64,000 nucleotides of DNA from Desulfobaccales bacterium (GCA_052147455.1 JBKQKO010000124.1:4618-68617); one strand, 5' to 3'; numbered from the stretch's first letter, positions 38,085 through 63,752 are shown. Translations and numbers: made by a program. The notes: generated by a model from the letters alone, not told the origin.

Positions 38085-38093
38085 TTTTGGCGC

Positions 38094-41917: not shown

Positions 41918-41984
41918 GCTTCTACTCCGCGCACCCGCTCAGAGTCGAAAGAGGGCCTGCTGGTGGCAGGCCCCTCGACCTCTG

Positions 41985-44701: not shown

Positions 44702-44774
44702 CTAACGTAGTCAAAAAGCGGTTTTTGGGATCCCTTTGCCAGGGGCAAACCCCACAAAGCTTCTCTCGCTGCAA

Positions 44775-45227: not shown

Positions 45228-45251
45228 GTGACAAAACCTCCTCGGTTATAC

Positions 45252-45599
45252 TTAGGTAGATGACAATTCCAGGGCCGCTTCCAGATAGCCCGCCACAAAT
45301 TTGTCCAACTCTTCCTGATTGACTTCTTTTCCCGACAGCCGGCCTACTTCCTGGCCGTCCCGATACAGCAGGAAGGTGGGCAAGCCCATCACCTTAAGAT
45401 CGATACACAGCCGCCGGTTTTTGCTGGCGTCCACCTTGGCCACCTTCAGCCGTGTCCCATATTTACCCGCCAGTTCCTCTACATATGGCATCAGGGCTAG
45501 GCAGGGGGCGCAGGCCGGTCCCCAAAAATCTACCAGCACCATTCCCGGCGAGGATTCGATTTCCGCAACGAAGGTCTCTTTGGTGACCTCCAGAGCCAT
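45252..45599 (-). CDS. thioredoxin
   Basis: 115 aa. Thioredoxin fold with active-site region DFWGPACAPC and ...GLPTFLLY. Confidence 0.85.
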   Translation of the reverse strand: MALEVTKETFVAEIESSPGMVLVDFWGPACAPCLALMPYVEELAGKYGTRLKVAKVDASKNRRLCIDLKVMGLPTFLLYRDGQEVGRLSGKEVNQEELDKFVAGYLEAALELSST

Positions 45600-45604
45600 A
45601 CCTT

Positions 45605-47038: not shown

Positions 47039-47073
47039 TTCACCTACCTCCTGGTAACGCCGGACCGCTCCCG

Positions 47074-48378
47074 TCAGGCGTTGAAAATCGTTGGCTGGCC
47101 AACCTGCGATTGCAGAGCGGCCAGAGATTGATCCACTAGTTTTCGCCGCACGGCTTTTTCCTGGTTGGGGCTCAGGTCGGGACTGCCCAAGGGGTAGGGT
47201 ATGGCAGCAGCCGGCAAGATCCGGTTGGCGCCCACTGCTAAGGCAATAGACGTGATGGCACAGATTTGCACCGTGGGGATTCCGGCCCGTTCCAGTTCTT
47301 TGGCGATCGTTGCCCCGCAACGAGTGCCAGTCCCTCAGGTGGAGGTCAGGATAACCGCCTGCACCCCGTCTGCAATCAAACCCCGGGCAATCTCCTGGCC
47401 AAATTTGCGGGCGTTTTCCAGGCTGGTGCCGTTGCCGGTGGTGGTGAAAAAGTACGGGTATAACCTGCCGATCTTGCCTTCGCGCTCGCAGTCCCGGAGC
47501 GCGTCCACCGGCAATACCCGATCGGGGTCTTCGTTGGCAAAGACATTGCTGTAGCCACCGTCGACGGACTGGAATTCCACTCCCGACAGGTCTTCGATGC
47601 CCTCCAGGCTGTACTTGAGAAACTTGCTGGCCCGGGCGGACTCCAGCCGGTCCGGGTTGCCCTTGGGGACGATACCGCCTTCGGTTACCAGGGCCACGGT
47701 GGCGGTACTGAGGTCGCTCACCGGGGGAGCCGGGGAGACCCTCTCAAAGGAAGGCATGGGGAGCTCCGTGCGGTAAGGCAGCCCCTGCAATTTGGCCAGG
47801 AGCAGGTCCACCGCCCGCGCCGCGCCGGTTTTCTCGGCCCAGGTGTTCTTGCGGATCCCCCGGGGCAGATAACCTTCGGCCTCGGGTATGCCTAAGGCCT
47901 CGCCCCCAGCCAATTTTAGACCCAGGACGGCCATGGCCGCAACGGCCTGGCGCATGCCGGCCGCAGAGGGACCGGTTGCCACGCAGAAGATGTCCTTCCG
48001 GTAGAGTTCTACGCCAGGGTTTTCCGGGTACATGCCGGTCACCGCGGGAACTCCCAGCCGGGTCTGCACGGCCTGGCATACGGCCCCACAGGCCGGGCCA
48101 TACCTCCCGGCATTGAAGGCCGGGCCGGCCACGACTAACTGAGGCTCAAAGGACCTGATGAGTTGCAGCACTTCTTCAGTGGCCTCCAAGATATGTTCGG
48201 CAAAGAAATTATCCCCACAGATCACCGTGGCCACCACCTGGGCTTTCTCGCCCAGGGCGGCTTGCAGGGCTATCCCCGGTCCCACCGGGTGGGCCACTGC
48301 CCGGGGAGCCACCCCGGCCTGGTCTTCTCCGCCGATCTGACCGAAAAACTGATTAAGATAATGGACTACTCTGATCAT
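47074..48378 (-). CDS. grdB: GrdB-family selenoprotein B-like (set 1)
   Basis: MIRVVHYLNQFFGQIGGEDQAG is a GrdB N-terminus. ...AVILTST-U-GTGTRCGATIAKELERAGIPTVQICAIT... reads through the TGA at 47335..47337 into track ORF 47074..47271 in the same frame. Confidence 0.9.
47308..47322 (-). promoter_or_regulatory. SECIS-like hairpin of grdB-like 1
   Basis: The minus strand reads CGTTGC-GGG-GCAACG, starting 13 nt after the UGA. Confidence 0.5.
47335..47337 (-). other. in-frame UGA (selenocysteine) codon
   Basis: Joins ORFs 47335..48378 and 47074..47271. Confidence 0.88.
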
Positions 48379-48390: not shown

Positions 48391-49647
48391 TCAATACTCC
48401 CTGATGGACAGATGGGTGGCCCCCAACTGGTTGGTGGCCGTATAGATGCGTCCCAGGGCGATGGTCAGCCCGGAGTCAGGCGGCCCTGCGACCCCGGCGA
48501 TCTCCTCGCCTCCTATAACCTGCCCCACGGGAGCCAGCGTCACCAACTCGTCGTTGTTGCCGGTGGTGACCACGGCGTCGGCTTCGGGGACGCTATCCAC
48601 CAGCGACGGCTGGTCCCCGGCGGCTCCGGCAATCTCGTTGGCCAGGATGACGGTTTTAATGCCAAGTTTTTCACTTTCCCGGCAGCTAAGCATCAGGTCG
48701 GTATCCGCGTGACCACCGCCCTCTTGGGTGATGACGGCTCCCTGGGCGCCCAGTTGCCAGGCCAGCTTGGCGGCAAATTTCGCCGAGCGTTCCTTTTCCC
48801 GCAGGGTGCTATGTTCATTGGCTAGCACCACTCCCGCAAAGATCAGGTCCCGGCCATGCCGTCGAGCCAAATCCAGGACCACCGGGTTGTGCAGATGGAG
48901 ATAAGTGGGATTCTTCTGGCAGGCGATGATGTAGTTGCTGCTGACTAGGGCCCCATCCAGCACCTCATTGGGGTGGAGAAGGGTGGGCAGCAGTTCCCGG
49001 GCGTTTTCGCCATACACCAAGGTATCCCGCAACAACCCCTGGGATTGCAGGTGATAGATATATACGACCCGGGGCAGATCCTGAGCTTGGTTTTCCAGCA
49101 CGCCCAGGTCAAACACCTCAACCTGGTCAGGAACCAGGTGGCGGGTGGGTCCGGCCAGGTATACCGCGGCCTCCAGCGCCGCCTTCCGGGTGGTCCGGTC
49201 AAACTCCGCGTCCGTGGTGGCGGGATGGGGAGTGCAGAGTAGCACCACGTTGATGGTTTTAGAGAAGATGCTGTAGTCCGCTCCCGGCCCTGCCATGTCC
49301 ACTATCCCTTCCTGAATACCCTGCCTTTTGCCGGTTTGAAGCACGGCTACCCCACCCAGCACGTTGGTCTGCCCCCGGCCGGCAATCTCCATGGGGCCCA
49401 GGGCTCCGGGAAAGGGCGTAGCACCACCGGAGAGCTTAAGGCGCGGCTGCACGGCGTCCATGATATGCACAATCCTGACCGCTTCCCCAGGCCGGGCCAG
49501 CTTCACCTCCACCTCCGCAAACGAGTGGTCCCGGTTCAGGAATCCTACCAATTCCGATTGGTTGATAACCAGGGTACCCTGTTCAATTCCGGTGCCCTCT
49601 CCGAACCGGGCATCCTTGATCGTGAATTTGCGTAACTCCAGCCTCAT
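48391..49647 (-). CDS. grdE: GrdE-family (component B alpha/beta proprotein-like), set 1
   Basis: MRLELRKFTIKDARFGEGTGIEQGTLVINQSEL is a GrdE-type N-terminus. Start at ATG 49647 with GGAGAGGAG upstream. Confidence 0.85.
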   Translation of the reverse strand: MRLELRKFTIKDARFGEGTGIEQGTLVINQSELVGFLNRDHSFAEVEVKLARPGEAVRIVHIMDAVQPRLKLSGGATPFPGALGPMEIAGRGQTNVLGGVAVLQTGKRQGIQEGIVDMAGPGADYSIFSKTINVVLLCTPHPATTDAEFDRTTRKAALEAAVYLAGPTRHLVPDQVEVFDLGVLENQAQDLPRVVYIYHLQSQGLLRDTLVYGENARELLPTLLHPNEVLDGALVSSNYIIACQKNPTYLHLHNPVVLDLARRHGRDLIFAGVVLANEHSTLREKERSAKFAAKLAWQLGAQGAVITQEGGGHADTDLMLSCRESEKLGIKTVILANEIAGAAGDQPSLVDSVPEADAVVTTGNNDELVTLAPVGQVIGGEEIAGVAGPPDSGLTIALGRIYTATNQLGATHLSIREY

Positions 49648-49699
49648 AAAAGGAAACTCCTCTCCAGGCCTGGCCATCTTCCCATACTTAATGACCCGC

Positions 49700-51202
49700 T
49701 TACACCATTCCCAGCCAATGCCAATAGGTGGCGCTGAAGATTACCATAAAAATAATGGCGATAATCACCAAAGGAATACCCACCTTCATCATGTCATCAG
49801 AACTAAAGGTGTCGGTGGAGTAAGCCACCATGGCCATGGGGGTGTTCACCGGAATGATTACGGAAAACTGAATGGTGTAGTAGAAGATGAGAGTCAGGCC
49901 CCAGACGCTGAGGCCGGGAATGTTGAGGCCCTGGGCAAAACCAATAGCCGTGGGCACCAGGGCGGCAACCGCCGCGGACCGGGCGGAAAAAGCCAGGGAA
50001 AAGATGGAGAAGAACAAGCCGCCGGCTGCGATCATCAGCAGCAAGGGCCATTGGTCCACTCCCAGAGCGATGATGGTGTTCTTGGCGACCCAGGCCGCCG
50101 CCCCGCTCTTCAAAAGCCAGATTCCCAGGGAAATGGCAGCGCCGAATAGCATCAGCGTTCCCCAATTCACTTTACCCACCAACTGTTTCCAATTGGCCAC
50201 CCTGAGACCCGGGAAAAATATCGCCGCTACTGCCAGAAGCGCTACAGTGCTGGGGTCTAGCCGGTGCAAGACATTTCCGGTGCCCCACATGAAGATGGTA
50301 GCCAGCATGATGATCAATAGCTTAACTTCTCCGCTAGTAATAGGCCCCAATTTGGCGCTATGCTCCTGAACGACGGACACCCCGCCAGCCAATTCATCCT
50401 TGCCCACCGGGAACAAATAGATAACCAGCAAATAGAGGACCACCCCCATCGTCAGGGCAAAGGGCATGCCATAGATGGCCCATTGGAGCCAGGTGATCTG
50501 GTGTTGGGTAGCCTGGGAAATGTACATGGCGGTTTGAATGGGTGGGGCGCCTGAGGTCAGAATGCCCATCCCGGCTATCCCGGTGCCAAAGGCGACCAGC
50601 AGTAACATCCCTTTGCTCAGGTTGCTTTTTAAGTCCAACCCGAAGGCTTTAATAATCCCTACAGATATCGCAGTCATCAAGGCGGCGTTGGCTGCCTGGG
50701 CCGGAATAAAGACCGTCAAGATAAAGGCCATCAACAGGACTCCCAAGAGCACCCGTTTCGGCTTGGCCCCCATGCGGCTCAAGATGAACAGGCCGATTCT
50801 CTGTCCCAACCCGGTTATCTCGATGGCGGCTGCCAGAAACAGGGCGCAAACCACGAGCACCCAGGCCGGCGAACTGAAACCGGAGAGGGCCATGCCCAGG
50901 GCTGCCTCGGTTCCCACCAGTTTACCGGGATTGGCGGCTTCCGGGGAGAGGGCCACCAAGAGCGTAAAGGAGGCGATCAGAAAAAACGAACTGGCCGCAT
51001 AGCCCACTGCTTCCGAGACCCAGATGACCAGCATGAACAGCATCACGCAGAGCAGGGCATGTCCCACCGGCGTCAAGGAGGACGGAAAAGGGATGAAGTA
51101 AAGGGCTATCAGGACGAGGAAGGCAAGGATGATCCCCACCGCACGCCGCATCTTCCCAACCGCGGTTGTAGCGCCGGAGATCTTGGCATCAGACTTTCCC
51201 AC
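49700..51202 (-). CDS. DASS/SLC13-type (ArsB/NhaD-superfamily) anion permease
   Basis: 500-aa polytopic membrane protein. Family assignment is from overall pattern only. Confidence 0.6.
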   Translation of the reverse strand: MGKSDAKISGATTAVGKMRRAVGIILAFLVLIALYFIPFPSSLTPVGHALLCVMLFMLVIWVSEAVGYAASSFFLIASFTLLVALSPEAANPGKLVGTEAALGMALSGFSSPAWVLVVCALFLAAAIEITGLGQRIGLFILSRMGAKPKRVLLGVLLMAFILTVFIPAQAANAALMTAISVGIIKAFGLDLKSNLSKGMLLLVAFGTGIAGMGILTSGAPPIQTAMYISQATQHQITWLQWAIYGMPFALTMGVVLYLLVIYLFPVGKDELAGGVSVVQEHSAKLGPITSGEVKLLIIMLATIFMWGTGNVLHRLDPSTVALLAVAAIFFPGLRVANWKQLVGKVNWGTLMLFGAAISLGIWLLKSGAAAWVAKNTIIALGVDQWPLLLMIAAGGLFFSIFSLAFSARSAAVAALVPTAIGFAQGLNIPGLSVWGLTLIFYYTIQFSVIIPVNTPMAMVAYSTDTFSSDDMMKVGIPLVIIAIIFMVIFSATYWHWLGMV

Positions 51203-51239: not shown

Positions 51240-52682
51240 TCATCGGACTGTCCGAATAGTATTAGACTGCCCCACACTATCTTCTTTCTTGCGGGTGATT
51301 AAACTGACAACAATTAAAACGATCGCACTGACCATAAGTCCCGGATACAGCGAAGAGATGCCCTTCGGATAAAGGGAGTGCCAGATGAAGTCAGTTAACG
51401 GCCCCAGTATTGCCGCCGCAATGCCACCTGCCGGGGTAACCAGGCGTTTACAGAACATGGCGCCCAGAAACGGGAAGAGGGCAGTGCAACCCCGCAATCC
51501 CATGGATAGGAAGGCGAAGCCCAGGAGCAGCTTGCCAAAACTGCCCCTGACGCAGACTACGGCGAGAACACAAAGACAGAGTATCAATGTCCGCTGCACC
51601 CACAGAGCCCTTTTGTCATTGGTTTCCTTGGCAATATACGGTTTGTAGATATCACGGGTAAGCATAGTCGAAATGCCGAGGTTTAAACCGGCTATGGTTC
51701 CGATCACCGAAATAAACAGGGTGGCTAAAATTACCCCTGCGAGCAAGGGTGGCAGGTAATGCAGAATGAAAACCGGTAAAACCTGGGCAGATGCAGTTGT
51801 CAACCCGGGGAAGCCAGCAAGATGAGCCCTCATATACAATCCGACCAGAACGCCACAGGCGCCAAACGGGGGGATAAGAAATGCTGAGAGCAAGGCGCCC
51901 AGGCGAGCCTTGCCGAAACTCCTGGTTGCTGCAACCGCTTGAATGTAGGTCTGGGTGCAGATAACTCCCACCACCAGCGAGAATCCATCTGCTAAGTCCC
52001 GTGAAACTCCACGGCCAAACAGGGAAAACCAGGGGAAAGGGTTTGGAAAAGCGTGATACATCGCCCTGATGCCGCCGAATTGGTAAAGAGACTCGCCAGC
52101 GGCGGCTATCATTGCTGCATATAACAGGAGTATTTTGACTGTGCCGACCATACCGGTGCCTTGAATCCCGCCAGCCATAACATATGCAAGAGTTATCAAT
52201 ATAGTGATAATCACCGCAACCGTAGGATTGAGATTAACTACTGAAGTTAGCAGCGCCACCGCTGCCAGACCATTGGCGATGACATTAAAAAATATGCCAA
52301 AGCTCGTGAAGATACTGGAAATGGGTCCTATTGCCGAACCGTAAGTCCCGACCAGATACTCGGGGATGGTGATTATCTTGCTTGAATAAATGGGCTTGAG
52401 CATAAAAGTCCCCAAAGCCAGGAAACCGATCCCTGCTCCGATACAGAACCACCAGGCGTCCAGGCCGTAAAGAAACGCCAATTGGGCGGTACCGATAGTA
52501 GCGTTACCACCCACCATGGTTCCCATTATAGTCCCTGCAACAACTGCCGCCCCCCCTTTACGCGAGCTGCCCGCAAAATCTCTTTCGTCTTTAACCCGGG
52601 TCCCGGCATAGAGGCCAAAACCAACAATTACCAATAACGTGATTATCATGCCAATAATATGAGCTGGGGTAATTAATATCAA
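51240..52682 (-). CDS. sodium:solute symporter (SSS) family transporter
   Basis: 480 aa. N-terminal pattern ...GLYAGTRVKDERDFAGSSRKGGAAVVAGTIMGTMVGGNATIG is typical of the SSF. Confidence 0.75.
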   Translation of the reverse strand: MILITPAHIIGMIITLLVIVGFGLYAGTRVKDERDFAGSSRKGGAAVVAGTIMGTMVGGNATIGTAQLAFLYGLDAWWFCIGAGIGFLALGTFMLKPIYSSKIITIPEYLVGTYGSAIGPISSIFTSFGIFFNVIANGLAAVALLTSVVNLNPTVAVIITILITLAYVMAGGIQGTGMVGTVKILLLYAAMIAAAGESLYQFGGIRAMYHAFPNPFPWFSLFGRGVSRDLADGFSLVVGVICTQTYIQAVAATRSFGKARLGALLSAFLIPPFGACGVLVGLYMRAHLAGFPGLTTASAQVLPVFILHYLPPLLAGVILATLFISVIGTIAGLNLGISTMLTRDIYKPYIAKETNDKRALWVQRTLILCLCVLAVVCVRGSFGKLLLGFAFLSMGLRGCTALFPFLGAMFCKRLVTPAGGIAAAILGPLTDFIWHSLYPKGISSLYPGLMVSAIVLIVVSLITRKKEDSVGQSNTIRTVR

Positions 52683-52768: not shown

Positions 52769-54082
52769 TCACATTGCCTCCGGTTCGAACAGGGTGGGCC
52801 CGTCGACCTTGGTCTGCAGGGCTTTGACGATGGCCCTGGCGAATTTGATTCTCCAGGCCCTCTCGTCTTTGGCAGAGAGGGCCGGGGTGCCGCAGGGACA
52901 GCTGAAACGATTTCCCCGGAGGACGCGGTTGGCGCCGACCTTGAGCGCCACCGCGGTCAAGCTAGTGACAGTCACTGTGGGCAGGCCCGCTCTTTCCAAC
53001 TCTTTTCCCATCGTAGCGCCGCTACGAGTTCCCGAACCTCAGGTGGCAACCAGCAAAGCCGCACCCACCTTCTGAGCCAGCAGGTCCGCGGCGATCTCCC
53101 TGGCGTGCTGGGCCATCTGGCTTAATATGCCATGATTCCCGCAGGTCACGTAATATGATTCCAAAAGCTCCCCGATCTCGCCGCGCCGGACGAGTTCCCG
53201 CAGAACGTCCACTGGGACCATCCGGTTGGGATTGGCGAGAGCGTGCGCAGCATCGTAGCCGCCGTGGATCACCTCGTATTCACCGGACTTCAGTGAATCT
53301 ATCCCTGCGATGCTATACTTGAACCACTTTGAGGCGCGCACCCATTCCAGCTTGTCAGGGTTGCCGCTGGGGACCAGTCCGGACTCGGTCACCACGGCCA
53401 GGCGCATCCGCGATGGATCGGGCACGGGAGGGGGCGGGGTAACTTTGTCATAATTTGGCAGGGGGACCTCTGTGGTGAAAGGACGCCCATTTATCCGGGC
53501 CAAGAGGAGATCGAGAGCCCTTGAAGAGGCAGATCCTTCCACTAACGCATTGATCCGCTGGCCGCGAGGAAGATATCCCTCGGCAGCAGCCGGCCCCAGG
53601 GGTTCTCCATGCCCAAGCTTCAAGGCCAGACGAGCCATGGTGGCAAGAGCTTCTTTCATGCCGACGGCCGAGGCGCTTGTCGGCACGATTAGTAAATTCC
53701 GGTAGAGCTCAACAGCGGCATTTTCCTTGAACATCCCGGTGACCGTGGGCTTGCCGAGATAATTTACCACGTCGGCACAAACCCGGCCGCACGCCAGGCC
53801 GTACCGCCCGGCATTGAAGGCAGGCCCTGCAATAACCACGTCGGGGGCAAATCCTGCGATCAGCTTGAGCACGGCGGCAGCAGTCTGCTCCATGTGGTCA
53901 GCAAAAAGGCCGTCTCCGCAGATCACCGTACCCACGACCTCGGCTTCCTTGCCCAGGGCCTGCTGGAGGGCACGGCCAGGACCGGTTACTCCGGGCATTG
54001 CCTGGGGAGGAAAGTCCGCTTTGTCTTCGCCGCCAATCCCGCCAAAAAACTGATTCAGATAATGAACAATGCGCATGGTCAA
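52769..54082 (-). CDS. GrdB-family selenoprotein B-like (set 2, divergent Sec motif)
   Basis: MTMRIVHYLNQFFGGIGGEDKAD...ALLVAT-U-GSGTRSGATMGKELERAGLPTV... reads through the TGA at 53039..53041 into track ORF 52769..53011 in frame. Start overlaps the grdE-like 2 stop (ATGA). Confidence 0.82.
53012..53026 (-). promoter_or_regulatory. SECIS-like hairpin of grdB-like 2
   Basis: The minus strand reads CGTAGC-GGC-GCTACG, starting 13 nt after the UGA. Same geometry as set 1. Confidence 0.5.
53039..53041 (-). other. in-frame UGA (selenocysteine) codon
   Basis: Joins ORFs 53039..54082 and 52769..53011. Confidence 0.8.
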
Positions 54083-55350
54083 TACTCCTGTGCCGTAACG
54101 CCGCGCTGGTTGGTCTCGATGGTCGCGGCATAGAGTTCCTGAAGCGGCAGATCGAGTTCCCCCTGGGCTGGCTCGCCCCGGTGAGCCAGGTGGGTTCCCC
54201 CAATCACCAGTGCGACGGGCGGGAGTTGCAGCCGCCTATCGATCCCCCCGCTGCTGGCAATGGCCACAGCTTCGGGCACGAAGTCGACTAAGGGAATGTC
54301 CTTGCCTTCGGGCCCTCCGTACTCGTGGACGACAATCCCGGTGGGAATCCCCGCTTCTTCGAGGGCCTGGACGGTCAGCATGAAATCTATATGGGTATTA
54401 CCGGTCGCTTCGTAGGTGCACAGCGCCCCGTTCGCCCCGAGCATGTTCGCCAACTTTGCCACAAACTGGGCCGAACGTTCCTTCAGAAATTCGGTCTCAT
54501 GGTGGCCCCGGGAAATGATAACCCCCCCGAAGTTGAGCTCCTTGCCATGCTTCTGATATAGGGCGACGAGGGAGGGGTGCCAGGTGTGCCTAAAAGTAGG
54601 CGTCCGGGTGCCGATCTTGTAATTTGAGCCAACGACGGCTCCGTCCAGCATTTCGTTAGGATGCAGGATGGTGGGCAGGCAGCCGCTGAACTCGTGGCCA
54701 TAAACATGGGTCTGGAGCATTGGTCCCTGAGCGCGAACCTGATGAACCCAGACAATCCGCGGCAGGCCCACAGTCTCTTCGCCGAGTCCGAAAACTTCCA
54801 TTTTGGGGGGAGTGAGTTCCCGAGTCACCCCTGCCAAATAGGCGGCCACGCGAAGCGATGCCCGTCGCAGGGCATCATCGTACTCCACATTCGAGGAGGC
54901 CTCTCCCGGTACAAATTCAAGCAACAGGTTGACCCGATCGGAGCAACCACTATAAACCGCGCCAGGTCCGGACATCTCGATGATGCCTTCTTCAAAGGCA
55001 TGGACTCCGCTTGCCGGGAAAGGGAAGTCCCCCACCTCTACTACCGTGAAACCTTCGAGGCGGTGAGTACGGCCGGAACCGCAGGTGCGCGGCGGACCAT
55101 TGAATCCCGGAAACGCGCCGGACGGACCACTCACTTTAAATAGCGGCTCGATTGCGTCCAGTACTCGGACCACCCGGACAGAATCCCCCGGGAATACCAG
55201 ATGGAGCCGAACATCTTGGATTCGCCCGTCCTGGAGGATCAGGTTTCGTATCGCCTTCGGCTCGATGGTAAGAACGCCATCCCGATATTCTGTCCGGTCT
55301 CCGAATCGGGCGGACCGGACCAGGAAAGAACCTAATTCCAAGTGTGCCAT
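54079..55350 (-). CDS. GrdE-family protein, set 2
   Basis: MAHLELGSFLVRSARFGDRTEYRDGVLTIEPKAI plus shared blocks with set 1 (HPNEMLDGAVVGSNY, ERSAQFVAKLA). Its ATG overlaps the stop of the upstream Mo enzyme (TAATG). Confidence 0.78.
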   Translation of the reverse strand: MAHLELGSFLVRSARFGDRTEYRDGVLTIEPKAIRNLILQDGRIQDVRLHLVFPGDSVRVVRVLDAIEPLFKVSGPSGAFPGFNGPPRTCGSGRTHRLEGFTVVEVGDFPFPASGVHAFEEGIIEMSGPGAVYSGCSDRVNLLLEFVPGEASSNVEYDDALRRASLRVAAYLAGVTRELTPPKMEVFGLGEETVGLPRIVWVHQVRAQGPMLQTHVYGHEFSGCLPTILHPNEMLDGAVVGSNYKIGTRTPTFRHTWHPSLVALYQKHGKELNFGGVIISRGHHETEFLKERSAQFVAKLANMLGANGALCTYEATGNTHIDFMLTVQALEEAGIPTGIVVHEYGGPEGKDIPLVDFVPEAVAIASSGGIDRRLQLPPVALVIGGTHLAHRGEPAQGELDLPLQELYAATIETNQRGVTAQEY

Positions 55351-57641
55351 TATTGTGCACCTCCGTGTTGCGAGACTTCACCGCATAGGTCTTTTGGGAT
55401 TTCCTCTGGCTTGACGAGATAGATGCGACACAAATTAAAACGAAGAGACCAGGTGCCCATTTCTGCTCCGCAAACATCATCTTCATCTTCGGTCAATACA
55501 TTTATATTGGATAACCAGACCCCAAAAAGGGAAGGTTCAGATTCCGGCATCTCCGGATACCACCAGTCAAAGTCGGCGTGGACCACGCGGGGATCTATGC
55601 CTGCAAAAATCTTACATTTCTGCATTACCCGGCCACGCCGTGTCTCAATCCAAACCCACTGGCCGTCAGAGATCCCAAGTCTCCGGCAGGTTTCCGGATG
55701 CACTTCTACTACTGGGAAAGGATACTGTTTCCGGATGACGGATACCTGGCGCCAGTCGGTATGCATATACTCTATCCGGCGAGCTCCGTTGATCATTATC
55801 AGGGGGAACTCTTTGGACAACTCCGGCTGACTAATAGGCGTGATGGGTTCTTCCTGATATTGCGGTAACGGATCGTAACCGAGCTTTTTGAGCAAGGTAG
55901 AATATAATTCTACTTTCTTGGTCGGGGTGGCGAATCCGATCTTCTCGTATTGTTGGTACTGAGGTGGATTAAGGATCTGCTTAACCCTGTCCCGGGCAAA
56001 TTTTTCAAACTTGAGACCAAGAGCCTGAAAACGGTAATTCAGCATCTCTTCCGAGCTCTCCCAGGTCCAGTGTTCGCCCTGTCCCAATCGAATTCCCAGA
56101 CCTCGCCAAAACCCATACTCGTCACGGCGGTCGTATTCTCCGGGTAAGACAGCAGGCATAACCGCCGGGCTAGCCGTCAAGGTTCGGGCCAGGCCCAAGT
56201 AGGAATAGGCCTGTGGCTTTTCCAACCAGCTGGCAGCCGGCAAAACATAGTCAGCGAGAGCCCCGCTAGGCGTTTTAAAAGTGTCCATTACCACAAATAA
56301 ATCAAGTTCCTTCAAGGCATCATAGACCCTACGCGTATTAGCATGGGATACCATGGGATTGGAGCCCACACTGAACAGCGCCCTGATCGGATAAGGTTGG
56401 CTGGTCAAGATGGCCCGATAGAGGCTGGGGGCGTGCCCCTGGCCTAAATACCAAACCGGCGGTTCGGCCCGGCTTCCCCAGGTACGATAGGTCAGCTCTT
56501 CCAGTTCAGTCTGCAAGGGCCAGCCATGAAACTTGTACCGCTCCGTTCCGATCTGTTTTGCTTTTTGGGTGGCAGGGAGCAGGTCTGTCAGCTCCATCTC
56601 GCGGTCGGATAGGTAAAACGGATGGGGCCCTGGGAGCTCCTCTCCACCCTGCACATCAATATTGCCAGTCAAGGCCGCCAAGATCCATCTGGCATGAATT
56701 GCCGAAACAGCATTGGCCTGCTGTTCTACACCCATGCCTTCCACAAAAGCCGCCGGCTTCGTCATGGCATACAGACGTGCTGCATCCCGAATGAGCTGAG
56801 CCGGGACCCAGGTGACCTTTTCAGCTTCTTCCAGGTTGAATTGTTCAACTCTTGCCTTGAGTTCGTCAAAACCGTGGCACCACCGCGTAACAAAGTCATG
56901 GTCATAAAGATTCTCCTTAATGATGACGCGAATCATGGCCATCAGGAGAAAGGCATCGGTCCCGGGACGCAACTGCAGCCATAAGTCGGCTTCGGCTGAG
57001 GTCTCGGTTCTCCGGGGGTCAATCGCTATGAGCTTGGCACCTTGTTGGATTGCCGTCTTGCTGATCTCATATACGATTGGGCGGCTCACAAATGAGTTGC
57101 ATCCCAGCAGAACAATGCAACGGGTAGATGGCGTGATACTGAACGCCGGGTACCAACCTATGATCGCCCGGGCTACATTGACCCGGGGCCCCATACAAAT
57201 CGGCGATGGCCCGACGTAGTTGGGGCTGCCCCACAAGTTCATGAACCGGGTACCATACTCAAACTGGGCCCAGTTGTCTCCGCTAAGCAAGCCGACGGCC
57301 TCGGGCTGGTATTGCTTCCCAATTACCGACAAGCGCTCGGCAATCTCATCTAAAGCCTGCTCCCAAGAAACGGTCTCCCAACGTCCCGCACCTCTTGGTC
57401 CAGACCTTTTTAGGGGAAACTTGAGACGGTCTGGGTGATAAAGCCATTCCACCGCCGCAGCCCGGCGATAACACTTGACCCTTTGAGCCCCGGAGCACCT
57501 TTCCCCTAAAGAGTGATCCAAAGTTAAACGCAACAGACGCCGGTCCTTGACATGAGCCAGAATATGACAACGCCCTTTGCACCACTGGCAGATCGCGGGT
57601 CGTTTCTCTTCCATGGGTCCTATTGCTAATGGCCTTGCCAA
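55350..57641 (-). CDS. cytoplasmic molybdopterin (Mo/W-bisPGD, MopB-superfamily) oxidoreductase
   Basis: 763 aa. N-terminal CQWCKGRCH...C [4Fe-4S] motif, no twin-arginine signal. MopB blocks present (LIAIDPRRTETS, GSNPMVSH; C-terminal barrel VEVHPETCRRLGISDGQWVWIETRRG). Confidence 0.85.
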   Translation of the reverse strand: MARPLAIGPMEEKRPAICQWCKGRCHILAHVKDRRLLRLTLDHSLGERCSGAQRVKCYRRAAAVEWLYHPDRLKFPLKRSGPRGAGRWETVSWEQALDEIAERLSVIGKQYQPEAVGLLSGDNWAQFEYGTRFMNLWGSPNYVGPSPICMGPRVNVARAIIGWYPAFSITPSTRCIVLLGCNSFVSRPIVYEISKTAIQQGAKLIAIDPRRTETSAEADLWLQLRPGTDAFLLMAMIRVIIKENLYDHDFVTRWCHGFDELKARVEQFNLEEAEKVTWVPAQLIRDAARLYAMTKPAAFVEGMGVEQQANAVSAIHARWILAALTGNIDVQGGEELPGPHPFYLSDREMELTDLLPATQKAKQIGTERYKFHGWPLQTELEELTYRTWGSRAEPPVWYLGQGHAPSLYRAILTSQPYPIRALFSVGSNPMVSHANTRRVYDALKELDLFVVMDTFKTPSGALADYVLPAASWLEKPQAYSYLGLARTLTASPAVMPAVLPGEYDRRDEYGFWRGLGIRLGQGEHWTWESSEEMLNYRFQALGLKFEKFARDRVKQILNPPQYQQYEKIGFATPTKKVELYSTLLKKLGYDPLPQYQEEPITPISQPELSKEFPLIMINGARRIEYMHTDWRQVSVIRKQYPFPVVEVHPETCRRLGISDGQWVWIETRRGRVMQKCKIFAGIDPRVVHADFDWWYPEMPESEPSLFGVWLSNINVLTEDEDDVCGAEMGTWSLRFNLCRIYLVKPEEIPKDLCGEVSQHGGAQ

Positions 57642-57721: not shown

Positions 57722-59332
57722 TTAGTGAGCGGGAAAGGTCCGGAATTTGGCGGTACCATCACGTTCAACCTGTGCCACCAGCCCAAGCTCCCATTCTATG
57801 TACTCTCGTTTTGCCTGTTCTGGAGCATCCGGGTGCATATAAGGCATATACCACGTGTCATCCGGCTCGCTTAGCGCGTGCTCCATACCCTTCGTCGTCG
57901 GAAGCCCAGCGTTAATCCAAGCCGTAGTACCGCCATCTAAGACCAGGACATCGGGCGCAAATTTTATATCCTTTAAATCTCTGGCGGCGAGGTGAGCTAA
58001 AATGCCATCTTCAGATGTTAGTATAAGTGTTTTAAGGTGCTGGACTTTTGACAAGTCTATTCCCAATCGGGAACGTATTCCCCACCAGCCCCCTGGAATA
58101 TGTTTTTCTTTATAATATCCACTGGAAGCTACGTCGATTATCACTGTTTCTTTATCAGAGTTCTTCAGCAGCTTCGCAAGCTCCTCGGCTGTTAGAGTAT
58201 TGGCCTTCTCCAAGCCAGGTACGCGGGATCTATAAGGACCCTGAATCAAAGGCAAGCCGGTGATCCCATTTTCCAGCACTGAACAATCTGTCCAGCCCAT
58301 CTGAATTAACCAGGAGGCAGTCATGGTGGCACGGACCTCGGTATCGTCCAGTAATACCAGGCGAGCGTTGAAAACGCTGATATATTCATCAGTTGCCTGA
58401 ATAAGCTGCCCGCCCTGAACATTACGGGAACCTTTCAGATGCCCGGCTGCGAATTCATCCGGAAGCCGCACATCGATTACATACAGAGTCTTGTCGCTGC
58501 TCTCCCTCATCCACTTTTTCAAAGTGTCGTAAGCTATCTTTCTGACGCCGAACCGTTCGGCTACCCTGGCGGCGCCTTCCTTGGCTTTGGCAAGTCCTGC
58601 GAGTGACGGCGCCGGAGCTATTCGGGTTTGCCCGTAATCGAGTTCGAACCCGCTTAGCTGCCAGCCCATGGTACCATTTTCTAACGCGGCCACTGGATTC
58701 GGGATACCTGCGTTGACCAGCGATTGTGCCCCGATGATGCTCCGCGTGCGTCCGGCGCAATGGACTACGATCAGGGTGGCTGGATCGGTCACGGCGTCGT
58801 GTACCCGATAAACCAGATCGGCGCCCGGGGCGTTGGTACTTCCCGGGATGGTCATAAGGTGATATTCACTCGTTGGCCGGCAATCTAGAATGAATTGTTT
58901 TTCATGGTTAGCAACCTTCTGGTGCTCTTCTTGAGGAGTTATGAAAGGGGTATGGTATTTTTCGGCAATCCACTCGCCAAAGGCCTTGCTATAAGCACCA
59001 ACGCCGGAGAAAAGCTCAAATCCGGCATCACGCCAGCCCGAAATTCCTCCTTGGAGGATCGATACATTGATGTAACCCAGTTCGTGAAGACGCATGGCCG
59101 CTCTTTCATCCAGGCGCCATACATCCGGCGGACCCTCACTGATGAGCACGATTGGGGTCGCCAGTCGCGGCACCAGGTCGCTGATCATGATTTCGAGCTG
59201 ACTCAACGGAACACAGGAGGAAAGCAGAAGATGTTCCCTTGAAAAAGGGTTGCGTTCCCTCATGTCCAACAGGGTGATCTCCATATCGCTCTTGAGAAGG
59301 TCCTTAAGCTGGTGTGCTGTAATGTATTTCAT
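57722..59332 (-). CDS. multi-domain rhodanese-like sulfurtransferase
   Basis: About 536 aa from ATG 59332. Repeated rhodanese-type units. One active-site loop VHCAGRTRS (CRxGxR-type). Confidence 0.75.
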   Translation of the reverse strand: MKYITAHQLKDLLKSDMEITLLDMRERNPFSREHLLLSSCVPLSQLEIMISDLVPRLATPIVLISEGPPDVWRLDERAAMRLHELGYINVSILQGGISGWRDAGFELFSGVGAYSKAFGEWIAEKYHTPFITPQEEHQKVANHEKQFILDCRPTSEYHLMTIPGSTNAPGADLVYRVHDAVTDPATLIVVHCAGRTRSIIGAQSLVNAGIPNPVAALENGTMGWQLSGFELDYGQTRIAPAPSLAGLAKAKEGAARVAERFGVRKIAYDTLKKWMRESSDKTLYVIDVRLPDEFAAGHLKGSRNVQGGQLIQATDEYISVFNARLVLLDDTEVRATMTASWLIQMGWTDCSVLENGITGLPLIQGPYRSRVPGLEKANTLTAEELAKLLKNSDKETVIIDVASSGYYKEKHIPGGWWGIRSRLGIDLSKVQHLKTLILTSEDGILAHLAARDLKDIKFAPDVLVLDGGTTAWINAGLPTTKGMEHALSEPDDTWYMPYMHPDAPEQAKREYIEWELGLVAQVERDGTAKFRTFPAH

Positions 59333-59572: not shown

Positions 59573-60622
59573 TTAGTGAGGATATCTACCTTTGCTAAGT
59601 CCAACGTTTACCAGTGCCCTTAGATTGTCAGGGGACACCCCTGGGGGAACGGTGCAATCCGCAGAGAGGAAATAGCCCCCTCCCTTCGCAGCCTTGGCAA
59701 TGCACGAAGCTGCTTCGGCTTCGACCTGTTCAGGCGTGCCCTGGAGAAGCGTATCTACAGCCTTGACATTGCCCATGAGGGTGATTTTGGATCCAAAGTT
59801 CTTCTTAAGATCTGCCAAATCCACCTTGTCCACATGCAGGATATCGACGTTTTCGTCTGTGACCAGATCGAAACGGTCATTCCAGTTGCCACAGGTATGG
59901 AACATGATCTTGACATCCTTATGGCCTTTGATATCCGAGAACATGCGCTTGGTATAGGGATGTGAGAATTCCTTATAGTGGTCGTACCTGATGCAATCTT
60001 TATTAGCTACGGGATTCGACAAACAAATGATGTCGGCTCCGGCATCCGTAAGGGCTTTGCTATAGGCTGTACAGGGACCGATCACGGTCTCCAGCAACTC
60101 TTTGACAAAACCAGGATCCAGCATGATGTCGAGGTATAGCTGGCTGGAACCCCTTAACATACACGCCGTTCTGAAAGGGGGGGAAACCCATGCACATATC
60201 GGTATGTCCTCCCCGAGTTTTGCTTTGAGCCCGCGGACGACATTGAGAAGGAAAGGCATCCTGCCATCTTTTTGCGGATCGATTTTGGTTTTGAGCTTCT
60301 TAATGTCGCCCTTGTCCTTCAGCAGGGGCTGAGAGATCCATGGAGCATCGTCTTCGGGCAATTCCACGTGGGCTCCCAAGGCCTCATCCACCGCGGGAGT
60401 ACACCAGATATCGAAAGCGGCATCGATATGAAAATCTTTGATAAGTCTGGCCTGGGCATCGACGTATTTATTTCCATCGGCCCAAATGTCGGCAAAGGTA
60501 TACCCTGAATAACGGATGGAGATTTCCCTGGAAGCAATTACAATGGGCACCCGGTCAGCTTCACGGTGAGCCATGGCCTCAAACACCCGTTCCCGAGAGC
60601 TCATCTGCGGTGTCTTACTCAT
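59573..60622 (-). CDS. uroporphyrinogen-decarboxylase-family (MtaA/MtbA-like) corrinoid methyltransferase
   Basis: 349 aa with a URO-D-family pattern (ERVFEAMAHREADRVP...FHTCGN...). Adjacent to a corrinoid protein gene. Confidence 0.75.
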   Translation of the reverse strand: MSKTPQMSSRERVFEAMAHREADRVPIVIASREISIRYSGYTFADIWADGNKYVDAQARLIKDFHIDAAFDIWCTPAVDEALGAHVELPEDDAPWISQPLLKDKGDIKKLKTKIDPQKDGRMPFLLNVVRGLKAKLGEDIPICAWVSPPFRTACMLRGSSQLYLDIMLDPGFVKELLETVIGPCTAYSKALTDAGADIICLSNPVANKDCIRYDHYKEFSHPYTKRMFSDIKGHKDVKIMFHTCGNWNDRFDLVTDENVDILHVDKVDLADLKKNFGSKITLMGNVKAVDTLLQGTPEQVEAEAASCIAKAAKGGGYFLSADCTVPPGVSPDNLRALVNVGLSKGRYPH

Positions 60623-60653: not shown

Positions 60654-61289
60654 CTAGTTTTTTCCGAATTCTTTCAGAAGATCGACCGCGGCGACGGCAT
60701 CTTCGGCATAAGCGTCAGCGCCGATCCGATCGGCGAATGCTTTATTCAAAGGCGCCCCCCCGATGATCACTTTGACCTGGTCTCGGAGATTTTGCTCTTG
60801 CAGCAGGTCAATCACATTTTTCATTTCCATCATAGTGGTGGTGAGCATGGCGCTCATCCCCAGTATCTGGGGCTTTTTCTCTATCACTGTTTCGGCGAAC
60901 ACCTTTCCTGAGACATCAATGCCCAGGTCGACAACTTCGAAGCCAGCGGCTTCAATGAGCATAATGACGATATTTTTTCCAACATCGTGAAGATCGCCTT
61001 TCACAGTTCCAATCACAATTCTACCCGCCTTGCCGAAAGTTCCACTCACCAACAGCGGCTTAAGTAGATTAACAGCTTGTTTCATAGTCTCTGCACTGAG
61101 GAGAACCTCAGGAATATACATTTCCTCTGCTTTAAAGCGTTGACCGACAATTTCCATGCCAGAGAGTAACCCCTGGTTTATGATTTGCAGCGGCTCATAG
61201 TTATTATCGATTGCCTCGCGAGTAAGACGTTCAATTTCGCCTATTTTACCTTCGATCACCGCCTCACCAAGACGCTTAAGGATATCCAT
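60654..61289 (-). CDS. corrinoid (B12-binding) protein
   Basis: B12-binding DxHxxG motif (GDLHDVGKNIV) and SAMLTTTM block, with an N-terminal helical cap. Start taken at ATG 61289. Confidence 0.85.
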   Translation of the reverse strand: MDILKRLGEAVIEGKIGEIERLTREAIDNNYEPLQIINQGLLSGMEIVGQRFKAEEMYIPEVLLSAETMKQAVNLLKPLLVSGTFGKAGRIVIGTVKGDLHDVGKNIVIMLIEAAGFEVVDLGIDVSGKVFAETVIEKKPQILGMSAMLTTTMMEMKNVIDLLQEQNLRDQVKVIIGGAPLNKAFADRIGADAYAEDAVAAVDLLKEFGKN

Positions 61290-61463
61290 ATTGATGCCCC
61301 CCACTTATCTTAATCTTAACGATGTCAATCAATACCAGCCAAGTAAACCTGGGTCTTATTATTCAATATTTAATAGCACCTTTAGGTATTACCCGAACCA
61401 GATGATTAGATGCTTTCAATCATGGTTAGGTGCTGTCATCATATTCAACATTTATTATCATAG

Positions 61464-62192
61464 TTAAGCTTCCGCCAATGATCTGAAGATTTTCGTGGTC
61501 CCACCCTCCGGAGGGGAATCGGCATGCAATTGCTCCCATTTATCCAGGTATTGCGCAGATTCTTCAATGTGGGCCCGCATAAGCCTTTCAGCCTTATCAG
61601 CCTCACGTTTTTCAAACAAATCTATAAGTTCAAGATGTTGGGCCAAGGCACTCTTCAATCGGGGCAGGAAACCAGATGTACGGAAGCGGATAAGCCGCAT
61701 ATGGTCATAGAGGGTTTTGGCAATATCAATCAATATACCGCAGTCACTGCGCTTTAATATAAATTCATGAAATTTGATGTTCGCCTGAGAGAATTCATAG
61801 CGTTGTTTTTCGAGAACTGAATTGAGAAACGGAGTAAACATTGCTCTCATTCTGGCAAAGTCTTCGCGGCTGAAATTATGGGTGGCCAAACGCGCCGACA
61901 TGCCTTCCAAGGTTGCACGTACCATAAGAATCGAAATAATTTCTTTCTTGCTTTTCCTGACAATAAATACTCCCCTGTAGGGCACCACTTCCAGAAAACC
62001 TTCTGCTGCCAGCCGATTAAAGGCTTCTCGCACCGGCGTTCGGCTCACTTTTAGCTGGGCAACCAGTTCCTTTTCATCTAATTTGCTGCTTTGGGGTTGG
62101 TCCCTGAGATCCGTTGTCAGTATGTACTCTTTGATGGCGTCGTAGGCCTTTTCACTGAGCCGTAAATGGCCGCTAAGAGCTATGGGCTTCAT
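61464..62192 (-). CDS. GntR-family (FadR/FCD-type) transcriptional regulator
   Basis: N-terminal wHTH (LVAQLKVSRTPVREAFNRLAAEGFLEVVPYRGVFI) plus a helical FCD-like C-domain. Confidence 0.85.
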   Translation of the reverse strand: MKPIALSGHLRLSEKAYDAIKEYILTTDLRDQPQSSKLDEKELVAQLKVSRTPVREAFNRLAAEGFLEVVPYRGVFIVRKSKKEIISILMVRATLEGMSARLATHNFSREDFARMRAMFTPFLNSVLEKQRYEFSQANIKFHEFILKRSDCGILIDIAKTLYDHMRLIRFRTSGFLPRLKSALAQHLELIDLFEKREADKAERLMRAHIEESAQYLDKWEQLHADSPPEGGTTKIFRSLAEA

Positions 62193-62253: not shown

Positions 62254-62961
62254 TCACATACCGAGGTAGGCCTTGGTCAGGCGGTCGTCTTGCAACAATC
62301 GCTTTCCAGTGTCCTCCAGGACGATGATGCCATTTTCTATGACATAGCCAAAATCTGCGATAGAGAGAGAGTGGTGGACATTCTGTTCTACGAGCAGCAC
62401 CGTGGTACCCTGAGAACGAATGCTCCGGATCAGTTCGAAGATCTTTTCGACAAAGAGAGGCGCCAGCCCCATAGTGGGCTCGTCCAGCATCAGCAGTTTA
62501 GGCTCAGCCATGAGGCCGCGCCCGACAGCCAGCATTTGCTGTTCGCCGCCAGACAGGGATCCGGCAAGTTGCTGTCGCCGTTCCTTTAACACTGGGAGCA
62601 AGTCAAGGACACGGGCAAGGTTTTCCTTTTTCTGGGCTCTAGCCCTGGGACAATAGCACCCCATATCCAAATTCTCCATGACGCTCATGAAAGGGAAAAC
62701 TCGACGGCCCTCCGGAACTTGCACAAGCCCAAGATCAACAATCCGGTGGGGAGGAAGCTGGTCGATCCGCTTCCCGAGGAACTCAATCTGCCCACTCTTC
62801 TGGTCAATAATGCCGGAGATGCAGTTAATGGTGGTACTTTTGCCAGCCGCATTGGGACCGACTAGAGTCACAATTTGTCCAGCATCAATTTCAAGGGAGA
62901 CCCCACGTAGCGCCTGAATATCACCATAGTAGGAATAAAGATTTTTGATGCTTAGTAACAT
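62254..62961 (-). CDS. HAAT-family ABC transporter ATP-binding protein, LivF-like (set 3)
   Basis: GPNAAGKST, LSGGEQQ and LMLDEPT motifs. Confidence 0.9.
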   Translation of the reverse strand: MLLSIKNLYSYYGDIQALRGVSLEIDAGQIVTLVGPNAAGKSTTINCISGIIDQKSGQIEFLGKRIDQLPPHRIVDLGLVQVPEGRRVFPFMSVMENLDMGCYCPRARAQKKENLARVLDLLPVLKERRQQLAGSLSGGEQQMLAVGRGLMAEPKLLMLDEPTMGLAPLFVEKIFELIRSIRSQGTTVLLVEQNVHHSLSIADFGYVIENGIIVLEDTGKRLLQDDRLTKAYLGM

Positions 62962-62996
62962 GGGACCTACCTAAATATCCTTTAATGAACCGATCC

Positions 62997-63752
62997 TTAG
63001 TTATCCCCCAGCTCTGGTTCTCGGCATTCCGCTGGATGCGCGTAGGATTCACCCAGGTAGGCTTCAATCACCCGCCTGTCCTTGCAGATCTCAACCGGCG
63101 TTCCCATGGCGACCAGTTCTCCATGATGGAGAACAAAGATCCGCTGGCAGAGGCACATAACGGCAGCCATGACATGTTCGATCAGCACCACGCCGATGCC
63201 CGAGGCGTGGAGGCGCGCAATGGTAGCCGACATCTCCTGAACCTCTGGCAGGCTCAGCCCCCCCATAACTTCGTCCAGGAGCAAGAGCCTGGGCTTGGTC
63301 GCCAGAGCACGTGCCAGCTCCAGCTTCTTCCGAAGTCCGATGGGCAGACCCTGAGCGAGATCGGCAGCTCGATGGGAAAGTCCTACTTGTTCCAGCGCCC
63401 ATTCAGCCACTTCCCGGGCCTTTTTTGGGTGTCGTTCGTGGCAGAGCGCCCCAACCAGGGCGTTGTCAAGCAGACTCAGGTGACTGAAAGGTCGCGTCAA
63501 CTGAAAGGTGCGGCAAAGACCCAGGCGGGTGATTCGATGAGGTTTCCACCCTTTCAAGTCATAGCCGGCAAAGACCACCCGCCCCTCTGAAGGAGCGTAA
63601 TAGCCGCTGATCACGTTAAATAATGTGGTCTTTCCCGCTCCATTAGGACCGATCAGTCCCACCAACTCATGCCCACCTATCTGGAGGTCAACGTTCTTCA
63701 CGGCGACCAGGCCTCCAAATCGCATGGTAAGCGCGGATGTTTCCAACAGCAT
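62997..63752 (-). CDS. HAAT-family ABC transporter ATP-binding protein, LivG-like (set 3)
   Basis: GPNGAGKTT, LLLDE and VIEAYLG motifs. Confidence 0.9.
   Translation of the reverse strand: MLLETSALTMRFGGLVAVKNVDLQIGGHELVGLIGPNGAGKTTLFNVISGYYAPSEGRVVFAGYDLKGWKPHRITRLGLCRTFQLTRPFSHLSLLDNALVGALCHERHPKKAREVAEWALEQVGLSHRAADLAQGLPIGLRKKLELARALATKPRLLLLDEVMGGLSLPEVQEMSATIARLHASGIGVVLIEHVMAAVMCLCQRIFVLHHGELVAMGTPVEICKDRRVIEAYLGESYAHPAECREPELGDN

Follow-up and report, generated by a model that had tools for sequence, protein, structure and literature searches.

The selenoproteins of the characterised Grd protein B enzymes, GrdB, GrdF and GrdH, carry the motif UxxCxxC (PMC6778437), where U stands for selenocysteine (Sec). 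The fluoroacetate reductase of Cloacibacillus porcorum departs from this pattern: the CxxC is missing from FarB, as are the processing cysteines from FarE, and FarE/FarB are believed to work with the common GrdA and GrdC components on an X-CH2-COO- substrate that is unable to form a Schiff base (PMC10838667). Here we analysed a 64,000-nucleotide stretch of DNA from a Desulfobaccales bacterium (GCA_052147455.1 JBKQKO010000124.1:4618-68617; hereafter the window), in which the gene for a molybdopterin oxidoreductase (MopB) is followed by genes for a GrdE-like protein and a GrdB-like selenoprotein, hereafter GrdE2 and GrdB2; a second such pair is referred to as GrdE1 and GrdB1. A preliminary description of this DNA had taken the translational coupling of the three genes to imply co-translation and stoichiometric expression, and possibly a complex. 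Our comparisons favour another reading, to which we assign a probability of about 0.6: the stretch holds two independently conserved modules brought together in one operon of a Desulfobaccales lineage, probably as one catabolic regulon, and these modules are not obligate physical partners. Literature searches found no account of a MopB enzyme sharing an operon with a B component of the Grd type, as the preliminary description had supposed.

The three open reading frames (ORFs) were present on the minus strand at 55350-57641, 54079-55350 and 52769-54082, and the genes were indeed co-oriented and closely packed. For MopB, a 763-aa product had been proposed; an ORF beginning with TTG at 57641 does exist, but the more likely start is the ATG at 57614, which gives 754 aa as in P0001, a homologue with 92% identity. 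The MopB stop codon TAA overlaps the GrdE2 ATG in the expected manner (TAATG at 55352-55348). The ATGA overlap reported for the GrdE2/GrdB2 junction, in contrast, was not found: the actual sequence is TTGA-CC-ATG, in which the GrdE2 TGA (54081-54079) is separated from the GrdB2 ATG (54076) by a 2-nt gap, and homologues of the pair are annotated with the identical junction arrangement. Overlaps of 1 nt between stop and start codons are usual in operons and, alone, have no statistical weight.

We compared the locus with related contigs and loci, which are designated by L-numbers. The order MopB-GrdE2-GrdB2 with the TAATG junction was found in eight Desulfobaccales contigs, whose MopB proteins are 88-95% identical to that of the window (L001/L002, L005, L007, L009, L010, L027 and L028). 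MopB orthologues of 72-78% identity occur in Syntrophobacter, Desulfarculaceae, L065, L066 and L067; none of them adjoins a Grd gene, and the triad is absent in L003/L006, L008, L011, L065, L066 and L067. In L011, where MopB is intact and 88% identical, the MopB gene leads straight to the gene for an SSF symporter, the GrdE2-GrdB2 pair being precisely deleted. Comparison of the scar (L011:12250-12290) with positions 52769-52790 and 55340-55352 of the window revealed that the MopB stop codon and the first three GrdE2 codons, TAATGGCGCAC, are joined to the last codons and the stop codon of GrdB2, GTGATGCG. Viewed from the Grd side, 36 of the 38 metagenome loci of the GrdE2/B2 type had no adjacent MopB gene, and the two that had one were at least 93% identical. 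The other 36 had TctC or TctABC upstream and, where the contig was long enough, GrdA, thioredoxin and GrdC downstream, or else stood alone. Thus the triad, whose conservation the preliminary description had named beforehand as the point to check, was confined to those Desulfobaccales contigs in which MopB is 88% or more identical to that of the window; the step from coupling to a stoichiometric complex is not supported.

GrdB2 matched PF07355 over residues 1-345 (E=4.4e-128) and TIGR01918 with 368.9 bits (cut-off 65.45). It remained below the cut-offs of all B equivalog models: TIGR01917 (GrdB; 348.7 against 602.2), NF040794 (GrdF; 381.1 against 800) and NF040795 (GrdH; 310.6 against 775). The in-frame TGA (53041-53039) is followed by G-S-G-T-R-S, with both Cys absent, and the paralogue at 47074-48378 reads U-G-T-G-T-R-C, exactly as first described. 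The reference motif was seen as U-G-T-C-T-R-C in GrdF of P. acidaminophilum, GrdH of E. gilvus and GrdB of A. noterae. Alignment did not bring the missing cysteines back: U-G-S-G-T-R-S was invariant in about 40 loci with available DNA, from several phyla, in which the reading frame past the TGA was likewise conserved (62-97% protein identity, with 89 aa downstream). Relatives of the GrdB2 type make up more than 100 database clusters of 62-95% identity, nearly all of which end at the Sec codon, Sec being a constant feature of the clade, and their carriers include Desulfobacterota, Rokubacteria, Burkholderiales, Hydrogenedentes, and soil and peat metagenomes. In the tree, the GrdB2-type proteins were monophyletic and apart from both GrdB/F/H and GrdB1, which agrees with the divergence claimed earlier. 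Two further forms were noted in passing. A third GrdB clade with U-G-T-G-T-R-S (L032:725-2023, L035:1147-2448 and L036:7700-9001) is encoded, with a GrdE partner, just upstream of GrdE2/B2, with a TctC gene between; L038 has yet another type, U-G-T-S-T-R-C.

The reading of the TGA as Sec was assessed through the selenocysteine insertion sequence (SECIS) of grdB. The hairpin was paired in 196 of 196 cells over 28 distinct sequences, three of its pairs showed compensatory changes, and none of 500 shuffles reached the observed pairing and covariation. One swap from A-U to U-A tracks the change from Cys (UGC) to Ser (AGC), and is matched on the opposite arm by a synonymous change of Ala from GCA to GCU; the second Cys was therefore lost with the SECIS kept. 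This covarying element supports the decoding of the GrdB2 TGA as selenocysteine, and the divergence of the Grd pair is itself conserved and does not reflect decay. The stem (53011-53027 in the window; 47305-47321 for GrdB1) overlies the codons for T-R-(C/S)-G-A-T.

GrdE2 matched PF09338 yet lacked the self-cleavage Cys (SGN-C). At the position of this pyruvoyl-precursor Cys, the alignment shows Tyr in both GrdE2 (GSNY) and GrdE1 (SSNY), where GrdE and GrdG have SGNC and GrdI has SGSF. GrdE2 scored 109.9 bits with the FarE model NF053623 (cut-off 675) and 254 with the GrdG equivalog (cut-off 780). As judged from the alignment, GrdE2 and GrdE1 are both without a pyruvoyl-precursor site. No solved structures were found for GrdB or GrdE. 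The plasmid collection, when examined for carriers that are cultured or annotated, gave only canonical Grd genes of Firmicutes, Enterococcus and Photobacterium, and none of the collections searched contained a cultured carrier. These results, taken together, define GrdE2/B2, as far as sequence can tell, as a widespread new variant of Grd protein B that lacks the pyruvoyl-precursor Cys and the CxxC cysteines.

The conserved company of this variant is the Grd system itself. In the window, GrdE2 is directly upstream of GrdB2, and the shared components GrdC, thioredoxin and GrdA are encoded at 44775-47050; in L018 and L033-L038, GrdE2/B2 is followed by GrdA and, where the loci reach far enough, also by GrdC and thioredoxin. 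The two B components of the window were lost reciprocally among contigs of 88-95% identity. L027 and L005 lack GrdE1 and the gene for the divalent-anion:sodium symporter (DASS), and of GrdB1 nothing is left in L027 and only a fragment in L005, so that GrdE2/B2 is the sole intact B component, beside GrdC in both and beside thioredoxin and GrdA in L027. L011 keeps GrdE1/B1 only. All three keep GrdC, and GrdA where the locus extends far enough. This reciprocal loss suggests that the two B components are interchangeable modules serving one GrdA/GrdC/thioredoxin set. Outside these lineages, GrdE2/B2 was seen alone in L019, L020 and L043-L053, which are soil, Rokubacteria and Burkholderiales copies whose available flanks contain neither GrdA nor GrdC nor a thioredoxin gene, and the neighbours of the stand-alone soil copies included no recurrent enzyme that would hint at the substrate. 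Those neighbours were a TRAP-type permease accompanied by a binding protein of the NMT1_3 type at one locus and a family-5 binding protein at another, besides a hydrolase, GFO/IDH/MocA-type oxidoreductases and a response regulator.

MopB belongs to a different set. The N-terminal cluster motif C9-x2-C12-x3-C16...C48, together with a molybdopterin domain (PF00384) and a dinucleotide-binding domain (PF01568), places it in the MopB/DMSO-reductase superfamily. The earlier assignment of a cytoplasmic protein with a CxxCxxxC...C cluster and no Tat signal holds, the motif reading CQWCKGRC...C; with the first cluster Cys at residue 9, there is no room for a Tat signal. The closest solved relative was acetylene hydratase (2e7z; E=4.4e-142, query residues 5-727 against chain residues 2-719), followed by PsrA (2vpw; E=1e-72); the PhsA model scored 269 bits (cut-off 694). 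The clade motifs CQWCKGRC and SPICMGPR are conserved, and the metal-ligand Cys is invariant. A formate dehydrogenase was rejected, the Fdh-alpha model covering the N-terminal half only and scoring 293 against a cut-off of 666. Relatives in the plasmid collection were only distant acetylene-hydratase-like genes of at most 36% identity.

We surveyed the active-site residues in a MAFFT alignment of the N-terminal parts. The Asp that adjoins the second cluster Cys (Asp13), which we take to be catalytic in acetylene hydratase, corresponds to Lys in the window MopB and in 13 of the 13 close-clade members having the N-terminus, and to Lys or His throughout the family at about 50% identity. This excludes acetylene hydratase proper as the identity of the window MopB, and the family members at about 50% identity, with Lys or His at the Asp position, are not acetylene hydratases either. 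The positions that we presume to be Ile142 and Lys48 of acetylene hydratase are Met and Arg, respectively, in the window protein. MopB is thus best described, from its motifs and relatives, as a predicted cytoplasmic, Cys-ligated tungsten/molybdenum (W/Mo) enzyme of the acetylene-hydratase branch, with a bis-pyranopterin guanine dinucleotide cofactor and a [4Fe-4S] cluster. Tungsten is plausible as the metal, by analogy, since the closest solved relative, acetylene hydratase, is a tungsten enzyme. TupA/TupB-like genes with an ABC ATPase and an AOR-like gene are present in the window, as the preliminary description had noted, about 20-50 kb from the MopB-Grd genes; the TupA/TupB-like genes, 20 kb away, provide a circumstantial hint of tungsten.

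The genes that accompany MopB were much more persistent than the Grd pair. Its neighbour is a four-domain rhodanese; a survey of the Cys residues of this protein showed just one catalytic loop, H-C232-A-G-R-T-R-S (residue number from the 576-aa ORF). The rhodanese gene was directly upstream of MopB in every close-clade locus with a readable upstream gene, a count that leaves aside L008, whose contig extends only 0.7 kb upstream of MopB. Upstream of the rhodanese in the MopB loci were genes for an MtaA-like methyltransferase, a corrinoid protein with the DxHxxG motif, a GntR regulator and a LIV-type ABC importer. The best solved relative of the methyltransferase was MtaA (4ay7), and its H-x-C...C pattern matches what we take to be the MtaA zinc motif. 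Downstream, MopB is followed in L066 by a methyltetrahydrofolate (methyl-THF):corrinoid methyltransferase (Pterin_bind) and a RACo-type activator, in L065 and L018 by a methyl-THF methyltransferase, and in L008 (L008:3638-7598; 73% orthologue) by URO-D-like, B12-binding and MTTB-family genes. L025, whose MopB is only 50% identical, still has rhodanese, MtaA-like methyltransferase and MopB in this order, with a stop/start overlap. The partners are thus kept at 72-95% MopB identity and, in L025, at 50%, and the deeply conserved partnership of MopB, as gauged by gene context, is with a corrinoid methyl-transfer system and the rhodanese, not with Grd. Around the L025 trio (L025:1-18244) are a variant radical-SAM gene, a gene resembling NifH and many ABC binding proteins of the NMT1/sulfonate type, a context that hints at organosulfur metabolism.

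The features of the window are listed in Table 1. On the minus strand, an unbroken row of genes with small gaps runs from about 63.7 kb to 44.8 kb, all on one strand. It begins with two LivFG-type ABC ATPases, GntR, the corrinoid protein, the MtaA/CmuA-family methyltransferase, the four-domain rhodanese and MopB, and continues after MopB with GrdE2, GrdB2, SSF, DASS, GrdE1, GrdB1, GrdC, thioredoxin and GrdA. A scan of the region for consensus promoters and terminators gave matches at chance level only. The best matches to the window, at 88-95% identity, were metagenome-assembled genomes of Desulfobaccales or 'delta proteobacterium'. A GntR gene precedes the corrinoid gene in the window (61464-62192), L005, L009 and L011; in L001 (L001:14976-15686), L007, L010 and L028, one lies between GrdB2 and SSF. 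From 34000 to 46000, the G+C content drops from about 0.60 to 0.47-0.53; this segment encodes a further ABC importer of the LIV type (38577-43229), and it also contains an ORF with a PAS domain and a fragment of an adenylate cyclase (43870-44662).

Table 1. Genes and elements of the 64-kb window, in the order of minus-strand transcription, followed by the more distant features.
Feature	Position	Strand	Basis or remark
Two ATPase genes, LivFG-type ABC importer	62254..63752	-	Remaining transporter genes beyond window end
Second LivFG-type ATPase ORF	62997-63752	-	Position and length compared with L001
LivF-like match	62257-62961	-	Homology
GntR/FCD-type regulator	61464..62192	-	Synteny; orthologues in L003 and L066 have PF00392 and PF07729
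Corrinoid (B12-binding) protein	60654..61304	-	PF02310 and PF02607; D-x-H-x-x-G motif as DLHDVG
MtaA/CmuA-family (URO-D fold) methyltransferase	59573..60622	-	PF01208, TIGR01463; H-x-C...C pattern
Four-domain rhodanese	57722..59332	-	PF00581 x4; start uncertain, ORF reaches 59452
MopB, 754 aa	55350..57614	-	PF00384 and PF01568; alternative TTG start 57641
GrdE2	54079..55350	-	PF09338, E=5.5e-105
GrdB2 selenoprotein	52769..54076	-	PF07355 and TIGR01918; Sec codon TGA 53039-53041
GrdB2 SECIS hairpin, UCGUAGC-GGC-GCUACGA	53011..53027	-	Starts 14 nt after UGA
SSF sodium:solute symporter	51240..52682	-	PF00474
DASS-family divalent-anion:sodium symporter	49700..51202	-	PF00939, TIGR00785
GrdE1, second GrdE-family subunit	48391..49677	-	PF09338, E=2e-146; SSNY at precursor site
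GrdB1, second GrdB-family selenoprotein	47074..48378	-	Sec codon 47335-47337; U-G-T-G-T-R-C
GrdC, reductase complex component C beta subunit	45605..47050, start approximate	-	NF040746, 671 bits (cut-off 450)
Thioredoxin	45252..45599	-	PF00085
GrdA selenoprotein A, motif C-F-V-U	44775..45227	-	PF04723; Sec codon 45102-45104
TupA-like and TupB-like genes with ABC ATPase	30562-32825	+	All below equivalog cut-offs
AOR-like ORF	4320-6053	-	N-terminal 200 residues match aldehyde:ferredoxin oxidoreductase

Several observations weigh against a division into two separate modules. MopB-GrdE2-GrdB2 is the most tightly packed part of the whole row, and its TAATG junction is kept in all eight triad contigs. 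In L001-type contigs, GntR lies between GrdB2 and the SSF-GrdE1 block, which places GrdE2/B2 in the MopB transcription unit. Among GrdE2 relatives of 73% identity or more, MopB-domain and corrinoid-methyltransferase genes lie within 10 kb at all informative loci. Two of these are outside the triad contigs: L018 encodes a MopB orthologue, 71% identical over its C-terminal part, with Pterin_bind, 8 kb upstream of GrdE2/B2 on the same strand, and L017 (L017:10570-15774) encodes a 1184-aa GltD-like/MopB fusion of 32% identity, with an MTTB gene and a B12-binding gene. These two neighbourhoods make a functional link closer than a common regulon possible. The Grd side of the proposed division is also incomplete: the GrdD query from E. 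gilvus had no match in the window, L018, L036 or L037, a TrxB query had none in the window, and neither GrdA nor GrdC lies within 10 kb of many soil GrdE2/B2 pairs.

A first alternative is the complex envisaged at the outset, in which MopB, GrdE2 and GrdB2 would assemble stoichiometrically and the W/Mo centre and the Sec enzyme would act on one substrate. The TAATG overlap, the 2-nt spacer, the preservation of the junction in eight contigs and the same-strand orthologue in L018 speak for it, as does the fact that such a link is undescribed in the literature searched. We nonetheless regard it as unlikely in view of the deletion in L011 next to an intact MopB of 88% identity, the Grd-free orthologues in Syntrophobacter, Desulfarculaceae and L065-L067, the 36 of 38 metagenome loci without adjacent MopB, and the conserved partners, GrdA, GrdC and thioredoxin, that GrdE2/B2 has of its own. 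The opposite view, that the adjacency has no functional meaning, deserves rather more weight, improbable though we consider it. The GrdE2/B2 cassette would then have landed or stayed between a corrinoid/MopB operon and a Grd operon, with co-transcription incidental. In its favour, the row is modular, GrdE2/B2, DASS-GrdE1-GrdB1 and GntR each having been gained, lost or moved among contigs of 88-95% identity, and the modules do live apart in most lineages; against it, the closest relatives of GrdE2/B2 in two further lineages, L017 and L018, again have genes of the MopB type and corrinoid genes nearby, and the window shows one strand, small gaps and a junction shared by eight contigs. On balance, a common pathway for GrdE2/GrdB2 and MopB is likely, and a complex of the three proteins is not.

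Two further alternatives concern the Grd pair alone. It could be an ordinary B component of a betaine (GrdHI), sarcosine (GrdFG) or glycine (GrdBE) reductase, given that its best NCBIfam matches are the GrdF/GrdG, GrdB and GrdH models and that the missing pyruvoyl-precursor Cys fits GrdI of betaine reductase. This is very improbable, since every equivalog score is far under its cut-off, the proteins form a separate clade, and U-G-S-G-T-R-S replaces the U-G-T-C-T-R-C of three reference enzymes; besides, the neighbours are Tct, TRAP or SSF transporters, and the grdH locus of E. gilvus has a BCCT betaine-type carrier. That GrdB2 is a decaying pseudogene is hardly credible. A copy without UxxCxxC in the DCMF genome was taken as a likely pseudogene (PMC6778437), but about 40 loci conserve the GrdB2 reading frame with its Sec codon, the motif of seven residues and the pairing of the SECIS, and FarB, which also lacks CxxC, belongs to an operon that was singled out by transcript levels in fluoroacetate-degrading cells (PMC10838667). 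We rejected the pseudogene on the strength of this conservation and the SECIS covariation.

Under the reading of two modules in one regulon, a mechanism can be proposed by analogy with the known Grd systems. With an X-CH2-COO- substrate bound to GrdE2, the Sec selenolate of GrdB2 would attack its alpha-carbon; the carboxymethyl group would pass to the Sec of GrdA, encoded 7.5 kb downstream, and GrdC would convert it to acetyl phosphate, with thioredoxin re-reducing GrdA. With Tyr in place of the GrdE2 precursor Cys and without the UxxCxxC cysteines in GrdB2, a Schiff base is probably not formed, and X would therefore be a good leaving group, as in the betaine and fluoroacetate reductases; candidates include halides, sulfoniums, and ammonium groups that are quaternary or tertiary. 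The SSF, DASS, Tct and, at one locus, TRAP transporters give a weak hint of an anionic or zwitterionic carboxylate as the substrate.

The other module, with its LIV-type importer, GntR, corrinoid protein, MtaA-like methyltransferase, rhodanese and MopB, probably constitutes a corrinoid-dependent methyl-transfer pathway. Chemistry on a thiol or thioether sulfur is weakly favoured by the MtaA-type pattern, the rhodanese, the affinity of MopB to Psr/Phs and the sulfonate-type surroundings in L025; given the MTTB genes of L008 and L017, quaternary amines are a further possibility. One regulon probably combines a methyl-oxidising branch with a reductive branch to acetyl phosphate, and such a two-branch regulon would resemble betaine fermentation. 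A more specific scheme, which we put forward as speculative and on the whole doubtful, is that the W/Mo enzyme and the rhodanese take part in an undescribed corrinoid-dependent demethylation of a sulfur or onium carboxylate, for example a compound of the methylthio- or dimethylsulfonio-acetate type, and that GrdE2/B2 cleaves the same skeleton to acetyl phosphate. If true, this would be a new, Stickland-like pathway that unites W/Mo, cobalamin and selenium chemistry in one operon.

A new principle is not demonstrated by this analysis; two enzyme groups gain clear gene-context handles. If GrdE2/B2 cleaves non-amine or onium X-CH2-COO- compounds to acetyl phosphate, ATP formation of the Grd type would extend well beyond the amino-acid-fermenting Firmicutes. 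The clade also indicates that UxxCxxC, a motif regarded as required, and the pyruvoyl group are dispensable in whole clades, so that genes of this kind should not be dismissed as pseudogenes. For MopB, the set of corrinoid protein, MtaA-like methyltransferase, rhodanese and MopB offers a context handle on a large family of cytoplasmic W/Mo enzymes. The literature searched on acetylene-hydratase-like enzymes, GrdB-like proteins and rhodanese-corrinoid-molybdopterin clusters described neither module.

Among the known systems, GrdE2/GrdB2 resembles FarE/FarB in that GrdB2 has no CxxC after Sec and GrdE2 no precursor Cys; it differs in that no FarA antiporter or FarC radical-SAM gene lies beside it and in belonging to another clade and other phyla. 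With GrdH/GrdI of betaine reductase it shares the absence of the precursor Cys in the GrdE-family subunit, Sec in the GrdB-family subunit, and a cluster that also includes the genes for GrdA, GrdC and thioredoxin. Unlike GrdH, GrdB2 lacks U-G-T-C-T-R-C, forms a separate clade and has no BCCT transporter nearby.

The MopB module recalls three systems. As in MtaA/MtaC and MtsA/MtsB with MeTr and RACo, there is a DxHxxG corrinoid protein and a methyltransferase of the URO-D fold, with Pterin_bind and RACo in L066; here, however, these are combined with MopB and a multi-domain rhodanese, and no such system is described in the literature searched. Psr works with Sud, a rhodanese-like sulfur carrier, and here a rhodanese gene adjoins MopB. 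Unlike PsrA/PhsA, however, MopB is predicted to be cytoplasmic and is not accompanied by PsrB or PsrC genes, and only one active loop is present among the four domains of the rhodanese. To the acetylene hydratase of Pelobacter acetylenicus (2e7z), MopB is homologous from end to end, with the N-terminal [4Fe-4S] motif and the Cys ligand; like that enzyme, it is presumed cytoplasmic and has no neighbouring gene that encodes an electron-transfer subunit of its own. It differs from acetylene hydratase in its context, which is corrinoid methyl transfer and a rhodanese, not acetylene fermentation.

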